Notes under the pieces: generated by a model
Seen by the model: only the letters and a program-made list of their open reading frames with translations
What the model was told of the DNA's origin: nothing
Databases searched by the model: none
Shown: positions 19,584 to 29,204 of the stretch, in pieces
Position numbering within the stretch: position 1 is the first letter of the stretch
Layout of the letters: the number at the start of each line of letters is the position of its first letter
DNA from: a phage
Sequence record: PZ386965.1
Reading direction: 5' to 3' (one strand)
Length of the DNA: 64,000 nt
Translations under genes and position numbers: made by a program

Positions 19584-22500
19584 ATGGCCGACATCAAACG
19601 TAAGTTCAGAGCCGAAGACGGTCTGGACGCCGGTGGCGACAAGATTGTTAACGTAGCATTAGCCGACCGTACAGTAGGTACTGATGGCGTAAACGTTGAC
19701 TTCCTGGTACAAGAAAACACCGTTCAAGTATATGATTCTACGCGTGGATACAACAAAGGATTTGTTGTTCTTTATGACAACCGTTTATACCAAGCAATAA
19801 ATGATATCGTGTCTCCTTCCGGGGCATTTAACCTTTTACAATGGCGTGCAGTTCGTACAGATGCACAATGGATAACTGTCGCTTCTGGGACTTATCAACT
19901 TTCTTCAGGTGAATCGATTTCGGTTAACACTGGTGCCGGCAATGATATGGTTTTTACATTGCCAAATACTCCAGTTGATGGTGATACTGTTGTTTTGGCT
20001 GATATTGGTGGAAGAACCGGGACAGTTAAAGTACAGATTAACGCGTCTGTGCAAAGTATTTTAAACTTTAGAGGCGAACAAGTTCGTACAGTTTTAATGA
20101 CGCGCCCACGTTCACAACTATTGTTTGTGTTTAGTAATCGTTTGTGGCAGATGTATATTACCGATTATGGTAAAGAATCAATCACTGTTACACCTGCGTC
20201 ACCATATCAAGCACAAGCAAATGATTTTATCGTTCGTCGTTTTACTAGTGCAGCACCAATCAACATTACACTTCCACGTAATGCTAACAATGGTGATATA
20301 ATCAGCCTAGTCGATTTAGATAGATTAAACCCACTGTATCATACAATTGTTAAAACATTTGATGATACAACGTCTATTGGTGAAGTCGGGACTCATATTG
20401 CCGAAGGCAGAAATGACTCTGACGCGTTTTTTGTTTTTGATGCTGCAAATAGTTTATGGCGTATATGGGAAGGCGACCAGAAATCGCGTCTTCGTATTAT
20501 CCGTGCGGATTCAAATATTCGTCCAAATGAAGAAGTTCTTATTTTTGGCACAAATAACATTACTACAGGAACTATTAATCTTACGCTGCCTTCGGGAATT
20601 TTGAGTGGTGACACTGTTAAAATTTCAATGAACTACATGCGTAAAGGCCAAACAGTAAAAATTAAAGCTGCCGAAGGTGATACAATTGCTTCTTCTGTTG
20701 CATTGCTTCAGTTCCCTAAACGTTCTGAATATCCACCTGATGCTCAATGGGTCTCTGTTACTGAACTAGAATTCAATGGCACTACGTCATATGTTCCTGT
20801 ATTAGAATTAGCGTATATCGAAGACACCATTGCTGGTACACGTTATTGGGTTGTGCAACAGAATGTCCCTACGGTAGAACGTGTTGATGCTGGAACTGAT
20901 GCTACACGAGCTCGTTTAGGTGTTATTGCTCTTGCTACTCAAGAGCAAGCAAATGTTGATTTAGAGAATACTCCAGCTAAAGAAGTGGCTATTACTCCTG
21001 AAACGTTGGCAAATCGTACAGCAACTGAAGCTCGACGTGGTATCGCTAAAATTGCTACAACAGCACAAGTTAACCAGAATTCCACAGCAGCATTTGTGGA
21101 CGATACTATTGTTACGCCTAAAAAATTAAATGAGCGTACAGCAACTGAAACTCGTCGTGGTCTTGCTGAAATTGCTACTCAGGTTGAAACCGATGCTGGT
21201 CTTGATGACACAACGATTATTACACCTAAGAAATTACAGGCACGTCAGGGTTCTGAAACACTGTCTGGTATAGTTAAATATGTATCAACTACTTCTGCTA
21301 CTCCTGCTGAAACTCGTGGGGCTGCAGGCACTAACGTTTATAATAAAACCGTAAATAATTTAACTATTTCTCCTAAAGCCCTTGACCAATATAAAGCAAC
21401 TTATGCTCAACAAGGTGCAGTAATTTTAGCTGTTGATAGTGAAGTAATTGCTGGTCAATCACAAGCAGGTTATTCTCATGCTGTAGTAACTCCTGAAACA
21501 CTACATAAGAAAACTTCTACTGATGGACGTATTGGTTTAATTGAAATTGCTACGCAAGCAGAAACTAATGCTGGGACTGATTATACACGTGCAGTAACGC
21601 CTAAGACGTTAAATGATAGGAAAGCTACGGAAGGATTATCCGGCATAGCCGAAATTGCTACGCAAGTTGAATTTGATACTGGAACTGATGATACTCGTAT
21701 CTCGACTCCACTGAAAATTAAAACTCATTTTGATTCTTCTGACCGTACCAGTGTTAATTCTGATTCCGGACTTATTGAAGAAGGAACCTTGTGGAACCAT
21801 TATACTCTTGATATTTCTAAAGCAAATGAAACACAACGTGGTACACTTCGCGTAGCGACCCAGGCAGAATCTAATGCTGGGACTTTAGATGATGTTCTTA
21901 TTACTCCTAAAAAGCTTTTAGGGACTAAGTCCACTGAAACGTCTGAAGGCGTAATTAAGGTTGCTACTCAGGCTGAAACTGTAACAGGAACTTCTGCTAA
22001 TACTGCTGTATCTCCTAAGAATTTAAAATGGATTGTCCAGAACGAACCAACATGGGCTGCTACTACAGCAATTCGTGGATTCGTTAAAACTTCATCCGGT
22101 TCTATTACATTCGTTGGTAATGATACAGTTGGTTCAACACAACCTTTAGAATCATATGAAAAAAATAGCTATGCTATATCTCCATATGAATTAAACCGTG
22201 TACTTGCTAACTATTTGCCATTAAAAGCAAAAGCTGCTGACGCAAATTTATTAGATGGCCTAGATTCATCTCAGTTTATTCGTAGGGATATTGCACAGAC
22301 GGTTAATGGTTCACTAACCTTAACCCAACAAACGAATCTGAGTGCCCCTCTTGTATCATCTAGTACTGCTACGTTTGGTGGTTCGGTATCTGCTAATAGT
22401 ACATTAACTATTTCTAACTCTGGAACAGCTACTCGACTGATTTTTGAGAAAGGACCTCAAACTGGAACTAACCCAGCACAGACGATGACTATCAGAGTTT

Positions 22501-23459
22501 GGGGAAATGAATTTGGTGGTGGTTCAGATACAACACGTTCTACTGTATTTGAAGTTGGTGATGAAACGTCTAATCATTTTTATTCTCAACGTAATAAAGA
22601 TGGGAATATAGCGTTTAGCATTAATGGTACTGTAATGCCAATAAACATTAATGCTTCCGGCTTGATGAATGTGAATGGTGTTGCAACATTTGGTCGTTCA
22701 GTTACAGCCAATGGTGAATTCATTAGCAAGTCTGCAAATGCTTTCAGAGCAATTAGTGGTGATTACGGATTCTTTATTCGTAATGATGCTGCTAATACCT
22801 ATTTTATGCTCACTGCAGCTGGTGATCAGACCGGTGGATTTAATGGATTACGTCCTTTAGCTATTAATAATGCATCTGGTCAAGTAACGATTGGTGAAAG
22901 CTTAATCATTGCTAAAGGTGCTACTATAAATTCAGGTGGTTTAACTGTTAACTCGAGAATTCGTTCTCAGGGTTCTAAAACTGCTGATTTATACACTCGT
23001 GCTCCTACTGCTGATACAGTCGGATTCTGGTCAATCGATATTAACGATTCAGCCACTTATAATCAGTTCCCGGGTTATTTTAAAATGGTTGAAAAAACTA
23101 ATGAAGTGACTGGGCTTCCATACTTAGAACGTGGCGAAGAAGTTAAATCTCCTGGTACATTGACTCAGTTTGGTAATACACTTGATTCACTTTACCAAGA
23201 TTGGATTACTTATCCAACAACTCCAGAAGCACGTACAACCCGTTGGACACGTACATGGCAGAAAACCAAAAATTCTTGGTCAAGTTTTGTTCAAGTATTT
23301 GATGGTGGAAACCCTCCTCAACCTTCTGATATCGGTGCTTTACCTTCTGATAATGCAACAATCGGAAACTTGACAATAAGAGATTTCTTAAGGATTGGTA
23401 ATGTCCGCATTATTCCAGACCCTGTGAATAAATCTGTTAAATTCGAGTGGATTGAATAA
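19584..23459 (+). CDS. 34: gp34 long tail fiber proximal subunit
   Basis: 1291 aa; MADIKRKFRAEDGLDAGGDKIVNVALADR... and repeated ATExRRG(I/L)AxIAT motifs; TATAAATA late promoter upstream. Confidence 0.9.
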   Translation: MADIKRKFRAEDGLDAGGDKIVNVALADRTVGTDGVNVDFLVQENTVQVYDSTRGYNKGFVVLYDNRLYQAINDIVSPSGAFNLLQWRAVRTDAQWITVASGTYQLSSGESISVNTGAGNDMVFTLPNTPVDGDTVVLADIGGRTGTVKVQINASVQSILNFRGEQVRTVLMTRPRSQLLFVFSNRLWQMYITDYGKESITVTPASPYQAQANDFIVRRFTSAAPINITLPRNANNGDIISLVDLDRLNPLYHTIVKTFDDTTSIGEVGTHIAEGRNDSDAFFVFDAANSLWRIWEGDQKSRLRIIRADSNIRPNEEVLIFGTNNITTGTINLTLPSGILSGDTVKISMNYMRKGQTVKIKAAEGDTIASSVALLQFPKRSEYPPDAQWVSVTELEFNGTTSYVPVLELAYIEDTIAGTRYWVVQQNVPTVERVDAGTDATRARLGVIALATQEQANVDLENTPAKEVAITPETLANRTATEARRGIAKIATTAQVNQNSTAAFVDDTIVTPKKLNERTATETRRGLAEIATQVETDAGLDDTTIITPKKLQARQGSETLSGIVKYVSTTSATPAETRGAAGTNVYNKTVNNLTISPKALDQYKATYAQQGAVILAVDSEVIAGQSQAGYSHAVVTPETLHKKTSTDGRIGLIEIATQAETNAGTDYTRAVTPKTLNDRKATEGLSGIAEIATQVEFDTGTDDTRISTPLKIKTHFDSSDRTSVNSDSGLIEEGTLWNHYTLDISKANETQRGTLRVATQAESNAGTLDDVLITPKKLLGTKSTETSEGVIKVATQAETVTGTSANTAVSPKNLKWIVQNEPTWAATTAIRGFVKTSSGSITFVGNDTVGSTQPLESYEKNSYAISPYELNRVLANYLPLKAKAADANLLDGLDSSQFIRRDIAQTVNGSLTLTQQTNLSAPLVSSSTATFGGSVSANSTLTISNSGTATRLIFEKGPQTGTNPAQTMTIRVWGNEFGGGSDTTRSTVFEVGDETSNHFYSQRNKDGNIAFSINGTVMPININASGLMNVNGVATFGRSVTANGEFISKSANAFRAISGDYGFFIRNDAANTYFMLTAAGDQTGGFNGLRPLAINNASGQVTIGESLIIAKGATINSGGLTVNSRIRSQGSKTADLYTRAPTADTVGFWSIDINDSATYNQFPGYFKMVEKTNEVTGLPYLERGEEVKSPGTLTQFGNTLDSLYQDWITYPTTPEARTTRWTRTWQKTKNSWSSFVQVFDGGNPPQPSDIGALPSDNATIGNLTIRDFLRIGNVRIIPDPVNKSVKFEWIE

Positions 23460-25328: not shown

Positions 25329-28300
25329 ATGGCTACATTAAAACAGATACAATTTAAAAGAAGCAAAGTGGCAGGAGTTAATCCTACTGCAGCACAATTA
25401 GCCGAAGGCGAATTAGCGATAAACTTAAAAGATCGAACTCTTTTTACTAAAGATGACCTCGGTAATATTATTAGCCTAGGCTTTGCTAAGGGCGGGGATA
25501 TTAACGGTAATGTAACTCAAACTGGCGATTATTTACAAAACGGCACGTATAATCTCAATGGAAATCAGTTTGTTTATGCAGGAAAATACATTGAATTTTT
25601 ACCTAAAACCACTGGAAATGGCGCTTGGGCTAACCAACATTCGAATAAAGCCCCTATCTTTACAGATTTAAGTTCAACTACTTCTGTTTCAGAATACCAT
25701 CCACTGATTAAACAACGCTATAAAGATGGAACTTTTTCTGCTGGTACATTAGTAAACGAAGGTAGTTTTAAATTCCATTATATTGATGAAACCGGGTCTT
25801 CAAAATACTGGACTTTTAATCGAAACGGTAATTTTCAAGTTGATTCCGGAAGTTTATTAGTATCTAATGGATATTTAGTTACTCAAAGTAATATTGAAAC
25901 TAAAGCTGGTTCTTTAATTGGTCCTAAAGTTATTACCAAAAATATCAATGTGAGCACTAAATCTTGGGACACTAATATTGATACTGCATATGATTTAGTT
26001 TCATTACCGACTTGGCACTATACTCCAACCGAAACGGATTTGGATACTAATGGTGTAAACTACCTTCGTAAATTCCGCGGACATGTTTCTTCTGCTATTT
26101 TCCATGAAGTTGCCGATGCTCGTTCAGGTAAACCACAGAATATTTCGTATTGGACGGGACGTAATGCTGAAGTTTATCAATGGTCTTATACCACAGATGG
26201 GCGTATGTCTGTTGCTAATTCGATAGGTATAGGTCTTGCTGATGTTGGTAACCAAGGACGTTATCCATTGGTTTCGTTTGGTAAAGGTATTGCAATTGGT
26301 GACAATGATACTGGTATTAAATGGGTTCGTGACGGGGTTATCGATTTAGTTGCGAATGGTATTTCTGCCGGCACTATTCTTAATAACGGTATTAACAGTA
26401 CTAAAAAATTGATGGTTGGTTATAGTCGAGATTCTGGTTCTACTTGGGATTACCCAAATAACAACCAAGCAATGTTTACTGCGCGTACCGATGTTGATGG
26501 TAATAATAGCGGTGACGGTCAGACTCATATTGGTTATAGCAGCAATGCCAAGATGTATCACTATTTCCGTGGCACTGGTCGTATGACCGTTAGTATGGGT
26601 GATGGGCTTCTTGTTGAGCCTGGCATTTTAGATATTAAAACTGGTTCAAATTCGTTAAATTTGCGTGCTGATGGTACCATCGCTTCTGTTCAAACGTTAA
26701 AACTTAATAATGGATTATATTTTAATGGTGATGGAACTAATGCTTCTCTAGTTTTTAAAGCGGCTTCAGGTATTGATGGCACCAAACAAATCCTTTGGGA
26801 AGGCGGCACTCGAGCAGGCCAGAATAAGAGTTATGTAACTGTTAAAGCATGGGGTAATGCCTTTAACGCATCTGGCGATAAATCTCGTGAAACCGTATTT
26901 GAAGTCTCTGATGGACAAGGTTGGTATTTCTACACTCAACGCCTGGCTCCAACTGATTCTGGAACCATAGGTCGTGTTACAACTTACTTCAATGGTGAGC
27001 TTCGTTCTAAAGGAAACCTAATAAGCGAAGGAATTCTTGAAGTTGATGGAACAAGCACACTAGCCGGTAATGTTACTATGTCTAACGGTTTGTTTGTTCA
27101 AGGTGGTTCTTCTATTACTGGACAAGTTAAAATCGGCGGAACGTTCGATGCATTAAGAATTTGGAACGCTGAATATGGTGCTATTTTCCGTCGTTCAGAG
27201 GCGGCATTGCATATTATCCCGACTCCTAAAGATGCTGGAGAATCAGGTGGAATAAGCAATCTCCGTCCATTAAGTATTAGTCTTAATAATGGTATGGTAC
27301 AAATGCGCCATTCTGTCACGTTAGGCGATGATGGCGCTGGCGGTAATATGATTACTGTGGACAATGATAACAAACTTGTTGTTGTTACTAGTCATAGTCG
27401 TATTTCTCCTAATTACCGTATGCAGGTAGGACAAGCAGCTTATATTGATGCTGAATGTACTGACACCGTTCGCCCGGCTGGTGCAGGGTCTTTTGCTTCA
27501 CAAAATAATGAAAACGTTCGTGCTCCGTTCTATATGAATATTAATCGCACAGATACAAGTACTTACGTTCCTATTTTAAAACAACGTTATGTTCAAGGAA
27601 ATAGCTGTTATTCTTTAGGTACTTTAATAAATGGCGGTAACTTCAGAGTTCATTATCATGAAGGTGGAGACGGAAGTTCAACAGGCGCAACTATAAAAGA
27701 TTTAGGATGGGAATTTACACGTTCTGGTGATTTTATATCTCCTAAGCGCATTTCTGCTGGGGGTTCAGTTTATTTAGGTACAGACGGTAACATTACTGGT
27801 GGTTCTGGTAATTTTGCCAACTTAAATAGTACAATTGAATCACTTAAAACTGATATTGTCTCAAGTTATCCAATTGGTGCTCCGATTCCTTGGCCTACTG
27901 ATACACCTCCTGAAGGCTATGCCATAATGGAAGGTCAAACATTTGATGCTGACTTGTATCCTAAGTTAGCTGCAGTGTATCCTTCCGGCGCTCTGCCTGA
28001 TATGCGTGGTCAGACGATTAAAGGTAAACCATCTGGGCGTGCTGTATTAAGTACAGAAGCAGACGGTGTTAAGTCACATAGCCATAGTGCAAGTGCATCA
28101 AGCACAGATTTGGGTACTAAGACCACTTCTAGTTTTGATTACGGTAGCAAAACGACTTCAAGCTTTGATTATGGTACTAAGACCAGTAATACCACTGGCA
28201 ACCATAACCATACAGTGAGTGGTAATACTAGTTCCGCTGGTGCGCACCAACACGCGCGTTCAGGTCCTCAGGTACAAGGCGGCATACCCACTAGCGTATT

Positions 28301-28622
28301 CTATGATGGATACAATAGTGCGGGTCCAAACGGTAACGCTAAATTCACTGCAACCGTGAGTGGTGCTACCGCATCGTCGAATATGGCCAAAACTTCTTCA
28401 GACGGTGCCCACACCCATAGTTGGTCAGGAACTACTAGCGCTACGGGTAACCATGCTCATACTGTCGGTATTGGTGCTCACACCCATTCGGTAGGTATTG
28501 GTGCTCATTCTCATACTGTTGCAATTGGTTCCCACGGACATACAATAACTGTAAATGCCACAGGAAATACAGAAAACACAGTTAAAAACGTTGCTTTTAA
28601 CTATATCGTTCGTTTAGCATAA
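25329..28622 (+). CDS. 37: gp37 long tail fiber distal subunit (receptor-binding)
   Basis: 1097 aa; C-terminal His-x-His repeats ([24 protein letters not shown]) typical of the T4-type fiber tip. Confidence 0.9.
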
Positions 28623-28626
28623 GGAG

Positions 28627-28647
28627 AAGGGACTTCGGTCCCTTTTT
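28627..28647 (+). terminator. hairpin after gene 37 (terminator or RNA-stability element)
   Basis: AAGGGAC-UUCG-GUCCCUU-UUUA on plus strand between 37 and 38. Confidence 0.45.
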
Positions 28648-28652
28648 ATAAT

Positions 28653-29204
28653 ATGAAACTCTATCACTATTATTTTGACACTAAAGAATTTTACAAAGAA
28701 GAAAATTATAAACCATTAAAAGGCGTAGGATTTCCGGCTCATTCGACACCAAAAAAACCTTTAGACCCTAAAGAAGGCTATGCTGTTATATTTGACGAAC
28801 GCGAGCAAGAATGGGTATATGTTGAAGACCATCGCGGAAAAACAGTATGGACATATGATAAGCAAAAAATTGTTATTGACACTCCAGGTGCTCTTCAAAA
28901 TGTCACTACAGAAGAACCAGGTGAATTTGACCTTTGGACTGACGACGGGTGGAAGGAAGATGAAGCGTATAAGCGGGTAGTTCAACGTGATAAGAAAATT
29001 CATGAACTCTATAAATTATTCAGTGTTTTAAGTTCTCTTATTGATGCAGAGGTTGCTAATAGAGAAGAAAAACGAAAATTTAAAGAGCTCAAAAAATTCT
29101 TTGCCCTTTTAGAAAAACATGAACATCTTGGCGGCGAATTCCCTAAATTCCCTGACCTTGAAAACAAATCTATTATCAAAGCGATTATAAATATCTTTAA
29201 GTAA
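28653..29204 (+). CDS. 38: gp38 distal tail-fiber assembly chaperone (T4 type)
   Basis: 183 aa; MKLYHYYFDTKEFYKEENYKP... matches T4-type gp38, not the T2-type adhesin. Confidence 0.85.
   Translation: MKLYHYYFDTKEFYKEENYKPLKGVGFPAHSTPKKPLDPKEGYAVIFDEREQEWVYVEDHRGKTVWTYDKQKIVIDTPGALQNVTTEEPGEFDLWTDDGWKEDEAYKRVVQRDKKIHELYKLFSVLSSLIDAEVANREEKRKFKELKKFFALLEKHEHLGGEFPKFPDLENKSIIKAIINIFK
29186..29193 (+). promoter_or_regulatory. late promoter TATAAATA (holin t)
   Basis: Exact TATAAATA 21 nt upstream of t ATG, inside the 3' end of gene 38. Confidence 0.5.

Follow-up and report, generated by a model that had tools for sequence, protein, structure and literature searches.

The window, a 64,000-nucleotide stretch of phage DNA (sequence record PZ386965.1), contains a tail fibre locus in the order 34-35-36-37-38-t, with open reading frames of 1291, 375, 220, 1097, 183 and 219 amino acids, respectively, which agrees with the annotation of T4. 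The frames of 375 and 220 residues, which lie between gp34 and gp38, correspond to gp35 and gp36, and the 219-residue product of gene t, which follows the 183-residue frame, is a holin. Positions 28077-28622 of the plus strand are in frame with gene 37 and are translated into the last 181 residues of gp37 and the stop codon (hereafter, the distal segment). The features of genes 37 and 38 are as follows.

25329..28622, + strand: gene 37, long tail fibre distal subunit, 1097 aa (open reading frame; megablast to annotated gp37 genes; sliding identity)
27786..28073, + strand: N-terminal part of the collar (D10) domain, aa 820-915, approximately T4 786-881 (2XGF alignment; Pfam)
28074..28253, + strand: outgoing (ascending) leg, aa 916-975, 60 residues versus 50 in T4, with H-x-H at 917, 959 and 973 (mapped on T4 882-931)
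28119-28148 and 28149-28178, + strand: two tandem KTTSSFDYG(S/T) units, aa 931-940 and 941-950; one in T4 (translation; alignment)
28254..28391, + strand: head ("tip") subdomain, aa 976-1021, 46 residues versus 28 in T4, the predicted receptor-contacting surface (mapped on T4 932-959)
28392..28568, + strand: returning (descending) leg, aa 1022-1080, 59 residues versus 50 in T4, with H-x-H at 1028, 1042, 1051, 1060 and 1069 (mapped on T4 960-1009)
28446..28526, + strand: three tandem 9-residue GxHxHxV(G/A)I units, the last being GAHSHTVAI; two in T4; the source of the eighth H-x-H
28569..28622, + strand: last collar strand, aa 1081-1097, 17 residues (17 in T4), and the stop codon (T4 1010-1026)
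28629..28647, + strand: intergenic hairpin GGGAC-TTCG-GTCCC followed by TTTTT, between genes 37 and 38 (read from the sequence)
28653..29204, + strand: gene 38, T4-type tail fibre assembly chaperone, 183 aa (identity to T4 gp38; Pfam Caudo_TAP)

The hairpin between the two genes is absent from the output of the terminator scan, though visible in the sequence. The gene 38 product has 66% identity with T4 gp38 across 179 residues (E = 3e-91) and barely passes the Pfam Caudo_TAP model (22.2 bits versus a cut-off of 22.1). It is therefore of the chaperone type, not of the approximately 260-residue adhesin type of T2 and T6, in line with the T4-type chaperone partner named in the original prediction. 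gp37 itself is a mosaic. By sliding identity, residues 1-500 are nearest to SHSML-52-1, residues 651-850 to phi25-307, and residues 901-1097 to p000v, and the breakpoints are spread over the entire length of the protein. Elsewhere, the window has 98% DNA identity to Mosigvirus phages, e.g., SHSML-52-1.

In T4, the D10 collar of gp37 comprises residues 811-881 and 1010-1026, and the D11 needle consists of a stem (residues 882-931 and 960-1009) and a tip subdomain (residues 932-959), with needle histidines binding seven iron ions (PMC6957217). In a phmmer search of the PDB, residues 820-1097 of the window gp37 align end to end with residues 2-242 of 2XGF chain A, the T4 gp37 tip (E = 4e-90). The Pfam Collar domain (PF07484) is found at residues 850-897 (E = 1.5e-11), ahead of the needle, and the C-terminal end of the protein is the conserved collar strand, as in T4. 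The two tips thus share the collar, needle and head, all seven H-x-H positions of T4 and the C-terminal strand, as well as the gp38 partner and the order of the locus. The proposed match to the T4-type needle is upheld by this alignment and by the conserved H-x-H positions, with metal binding itself presumed.

The window gp37 is longer than that of T4 (1097 versus 1026 residues), as stated in the original prediction. The 71 extra residues are divided between the region upstream of residue 820 (34 residues) and the tip (37 residues), where the outgoing leg accounts for 10, the head for 18 and the returning leg for 9. The suggestion that the extra length lies in a repeat region carrying host-range determinants is therefore correct for the 18 residues in the receptor-contacting head, but not for the 19 in the structural stem or for the 34 in the shaft. 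The tip is also not essentially identical to that of T4: identity is about 63% over 278 residues, with four indels, and it is only 30-40% in the 50-residue blocks that cover the head.

Both repeat families reported from the first reading of the sequence are present near the C-terminus of gp37, and the peptides quoted there agree exactly with the translation. The tandem KTTSSFDYG(S/T) repeats consist of two units, as listed above, and the H-x-H array is real, although seven motifs had been listed where eight are present; the one missed is KSHSHSA, at the start of the distal segment. All 16 histidines in the last 181 residues belong to H-x-H pairs. When these residues are shuffled, the mean number of H-x-H motifs is 1.3 and the maximum in 20,000 trials is 6, compared with the 8 observed. 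Tandem Repeats Finder called a 27-nt GxGAHxHxV array at 28452-28519 (2.5 copies, 73% matches); it did not call the two-copy 30-nt KTTSSFDYG array, whose DNA units are only 23/30 identical.

The layout of the needle can be expressed as intervals counted from the collar DMRG motif and then between successive H-x-H motifs, the middle value spanning the head. The window tip has intervals of 42,14 (outgoing), 55 (head) and 14,9,9,9 (returning), whereas that of T4 has 32,14 (outgoing), 37 (head) and 14,9,9 (returning). The window tip therefore differs from T4 in having eight rather than seven H-x-H motifs, a longer stem in both legs, and an enlarged head whose sequence is largely different. Its spacing is one of the recurrent layouts in the family.

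The last 209 residues of gp37, which include the whole distal segment, are 100% identical to those of gp37 of p000v, an Escherichia phage of the genus Mosigvirus (AYN56436.1, MK047717). Within the 543 coding nucleotides of the distal segment the two phages differ at nine, all of them third-position and synonymous, and their gp38 proteins are 100% identical. The shaft of p000v gp37 (1032 aa) is, in contrast, strongly different, with 12-46% identity in 50-residue blocks at residues 151-500 and 651-800. Tips of the same length with 87-98% protein identity occur in JS09, phiD1, HX01, VR25, Bas41, SHSML-52-1 and many other Mosigvirus and Tequatrovirus phages, and the gp37/gp38 region of AV118 has 91.2% nucleotide identity to the window over 80% of the query. 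Matches to the tip were obtained in 677 phage records. Bas41 (FriedrichZschokke) shares both the long-stem layout and the head type of the window, with 88.8% identity in the tip and about 78% in the head, as counted from the alignment; its gp38 is of another class, 65% identical to that of the window. JK45 has the same long-stem layout with a different head type. A link between gp38 class and either stem length or head type was considered and rejected.

The long stem is found in 11 of 14 T-even tips (13 phage records and the window). The C-terminus of lambda Stf has the same stem layout (42,14 before the head and 14,9,9,9 after it) and two KTT(S/G)SFDYG units, and is about 61% identical to the window tip over 262 residues. 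Lambda Stf differs in its head (interval of 48 versus 55 in the window), its N-terminal fibre, its siphovirus context and its partner, which is Tfa and not gp38. The prevalence of the long stem among the T-even tips, together with the lambda Stf layout, indicates that T4 is the short form. The gp37 tip of the window is ordinary, of T4 type and with the common long stem, and is already known and already sequenced.

The distal segment very probably corresponds to the distal needle (D11) and last collar strand of a T4-type gp37 with its own receptor-binding site, in which eight sites, one extra rung and a head that most likely binds OmpC are predicted. Three gp37 chains would trimerise with the aid of the adjoining gp38 chaperone and of gp57A, which is encoded elsewhere in the genome. 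Each chain would run outward through residues 916-975, form the 46-residue head at residues 976-1021, and run back through residues 1022-1080, and the three chains together would build a six-stranded antiparallel needle. Every H-x-H motif would bind one metal ion (iron in T4) on the fibre axis, with all three chains taking part, which would give eight metal sites versus seven in T4, the eighth being presumably occupied like the others. One additional rung would be formed where the outgoing leg has its second KTTSSFDYG unit and the returning leg its third GxGAHxHxV unit, and this rung would keep the two legs equal (60/59 residues, compared with 50/50 for T4). Specificity would reside in the divergent and enlarged head, which most likely binds OmpC and possibly LPS with it. 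The AlphaFold2 monomer model of residues 820-1097, built on a 37-sequence alignment, is unusable (mean pLDDT 51, pTM 0.21), and for this reason the longer needle and the eighth site are proposed from sequence comparison.

The correspondence between the two legs extends to homologues. The 90%-identity clusters supplied 115 of the 229 parsed homologues and the 50%-identity representatives the other 114, and the first interval was excluded when the legs were split. The homologue listing comprised proteins of up to 481 residues, mostly prophage Stf fragments, and full-length T-even gp37 proteins were taken from the phage collection. One homologue, with a first interval of 69 and probably a degenerate H-x-H, remained unclassed. 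In all 228 others, a first outgoing interval of 22, 32, 41-42 or 52 is paired with 1, 2, 3 or 4 nine-residue returning steps, respectively, and the two legs have equal numbers of 14-residue steps (0/0, 1/1 or 2/2). These two kinds of step vary independently, and seven distinct matched layouts were found. The same holds where heads are shared between stem forms: JK45 (long stem) and PhiZZ23 (short stem) share a head and have both indels present or absent together, and in each of the 3 of 71 head clusters that contain both stem forms, the legs are matched every time. One metagenome contig (L004, from metagenome 3300030021), which is outside the 229 parsed homologues, breaks the rule with a long outgoing and a short returning leg; either matching is not always obligatory or the missing 27-nt unit reflects a collapsed repeat in the contig.

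A structural basis for this matching is suggested by contacts in the T4 tip between Gly921 and Phe970 and between His929 and Gly964 (G921-F970 and H929-G964; PMC6957217), which give an antiparallel register of i + j ~1892. This register would set the T4 KTTSSFDYG unit (897-905) opposite GAHTHTVAI (987-995). The second KTTSSFDYG unit and the extra GxGAHxHxV unit of the window are thus best read as the two putative halves of one added needle rung, with lateral pairing between the two inserted units predicted from the same register. More generally, the needle of the T4 gp37/lambda Stf family is probably built of quantised paired rungs of two kinds, with the legs kept matched by structural selection; the window tip would be the common eight-site form, and the T4 tip a shortened one. 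A "10/9" rung, in which a KTTSSFDYG-like outgoing unit stands opposite a GxGAHxHxV returning unit, may add one metal site, and a "14/14" rung, with one H-x-H unit in each leg, may add two. Natural needles may contain one to four "10/9" rungs and zero to two "14/14" rungs.

The legs might instead match through shared ancestry only, being co-inherited around a swappable head with no structural requirement. The sequences have a common descent, two crossovers within the conserved His boxes would exchange the head and leave both legs from one parent, and one unmatched natural sequence, the metagenome contig, exists. Co-inheritance could account for part of the matching. Ancestry of this kind is nevertheless an improbable sole cause, given the seven matched layouts that arise from two independently varying kinds of step, and given that gp37 is heavily mosaic, yet the sole unmatched needle lay outside the parsed homologues. 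The T4 contacts, in addition, would set the two units opposite each other. A different origin, by recent slippage or duplication, would let the tandem units act as a fast and variable switch of host range. Such a switch would suit the head-to-tail arrangement of the 30- and 27-nt repeats, the known host-range plasticity of the gene, and a copy number unlike that of T4. It would resemble the laboratory host-range mutants of T4 with duplications in the gene 37 adhesin that were reportedly described by Tetart and co-workers in 1996. The repeat units of the window, however, have diverged at synonymous sites (18-20/27 identical for GxGAHxHxV, in addition to the value given above for KTTSSFDYG) and are therefore old and not recent slippage products. 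Their copy numbers are equal in p000v, phiD1, HX01, SHSML-52-1, Bas41, JK45, slur14, GiZh, F2 and lambda Stf, and the copy numbers of the two legs are locked together family-wide. Recent slippage was rejected on the synonymous divergence and the conserved copy number, and its probability is very low indeed.

The paired-rung rule is a modest by-product of the analysis. It was not found stated in the literature searched, where a query for GXHXH in tail fibers returned no paper, and may be implicit in the paper on the T4 tip structure (Bartual et al. 2010). If confirmed structurally, it would provide a simple design constraint for gp37 and Stf, namely that units be changed in both legs together, and the length of the needle could be tuned by engineering matched units in or out. 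T4 serves as the structural reference with a shorter needle, so that homology models of most natural T4-type tips would have to include an additional rung and an enlarged head.

OmpC is the likely receptor of the window tip, by analogy with its relatives. Bas41, JK45, JK42 and other T4-like phages require ompC in RB-TnSeq screens in K-12 and O157:H7, and every T4-like phage of that study recognised OmpC (bioRxiv 10.64898/2026.07.23.740414). AV117 and AV118 have been confirmed on ompC mutants, and AV110, whose tip is 95.3% identical to that of the window at the nucleotide level, is a predicted OmpC user (PMC10844046). In a screen of 73 Straboviridae phages, the Gp37 C-terminal domains were aligned for the 17 OmpC-specific phages (bioRxiv 10.64898/2026.04.02.716166). 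For T4, residues of the tip that are critical for binding, two histidines among them, have been reported (PMC6957217). Apart from these histidines, the window has identical residues only at the positions aligned with G938 and G943, in a region where the alignment is unreliable; receptor contacts are thus not transferable from T4 and, as far as the aligned residues can tell, must differ from those of T4.

An enlarged, divergent head on the same fold could bind another receptor, either the LPS core alone or another porin, e.g., OmpF. The head is 18 residues longer than that of T4, and its low identity in the head-covering blocks would be in keeping with a change of receptor. A T-even phage with its adhesin on gp37, TuIa, was reportedly shown by Montag and co-workers in 1990 to use OmpF. 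AV116 and AV122, which have a T4-type gp37, appear to be LPS- rather than OmpC-dependent (PMC10844046). A receptor other than OmpC is nonetheless unlikely, since Bas41, which shares its head type with the window, is ompC-dependent in both K-12 and O157:H7, since OmpC was recognised throughout the RB-TnSeq set, and since the 17 OmpC-specific phages of the larger screen are the set characterised via the Gp37 C-terminal domains. With OmpC as the preferred receptor, the analysis provides a confident annotation of the host-recognition module in a Mosigvirus-like phage together with a testable prediction, which could be of use in phage cocktail design and tail-fibre swapping, with limited practical value.

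In the published view, variation of the gp37 tip concentrates in the head (PMC10844046; bioRxiv 10.64898/2026.04.02.716166). SHSML-52-1, the closest genome to the window, has the same stem and a different head, and this difference on a shared stem fits that view.

By sequence comparison with five phages, the 1097-residue long tail fibre distal subunit gp37 (window 25329-28622, + strand) is a mosaic of three parts, each with a different closest relative. Identity is 98-100% to SHSML-52-1 over residues 1-500, 98-100% to phi25-307 over residues 651-850, and 100% to p000v over residues 901-1097; at residues 551-600, the best identity among the same five phages is at most 66%.

Within gp37, residues 44-169 (window 25458-25835) and 670-801 (27336-27731) form an internal repeat with a local BLOSUM62 alignment score of 137, and share the pattern Y.P..KQRY...GTL.N.G.F..HY. 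In the alignment with T4 gp37, most of this pattern in the N-terminal copy (residues 44-169) faces a gap. Shaft residues 483-665 (window 26775-27323) are homologous to the proximal fibre protein gp34 (encoded at window 19584-23459) in its C-terminal part, matching the structures PDB 4UXE and 5NXF at E of about 1e-11. The segment corresponds to the already known module that gp34 and gp37 have in common.

The T4-type tail fibre assembly chaperone gp38 (183 residues; window 28653-29204, + strand) was compared with its counterparts in loci L001, L026, L027, L029, L030, and L033, and the chaperones fall into two classes with about 65% identity between them. One class comprises the window, p000v, SHSML-52-1, HX01, phi25-307, phiD1, and JK45, and the other comprises T4, Bas41, PhiZZ23, SP18, and GiZh. 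Among the phages of both classes compared, gp38 class correlates with neither gp37 stem length nor head type.

The gap that separates the stop codon of gene 37 from the start codon of gene 38 holds a GC-rich hairpin (window 28629-28647; GGGAC-TTCG-GTCCC) with a UUCG-type loop, followed by TTTTT. In sequence, this hairpin resembles an intrinsic terminator, or else an element that would stabilise the RNA; it is not among the sites returned by the consensus terminator scan.

Unmatched legs were found in one needle only, that of the metagenome contig L004 (IMGVR_UViG_3300030021_000020, about 2160-2280), which has two KTTSSFDYG units in the outgoing leg but only two 9-residue steps in the returning leg (H-x-H spacing [42,14|55|14,9,9]). 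One 27-nt unit is truly absent from the contig, and the mismatch may reflect either a repeat collapsed during metagenome assembly or a difference in leg length that is tolerated.
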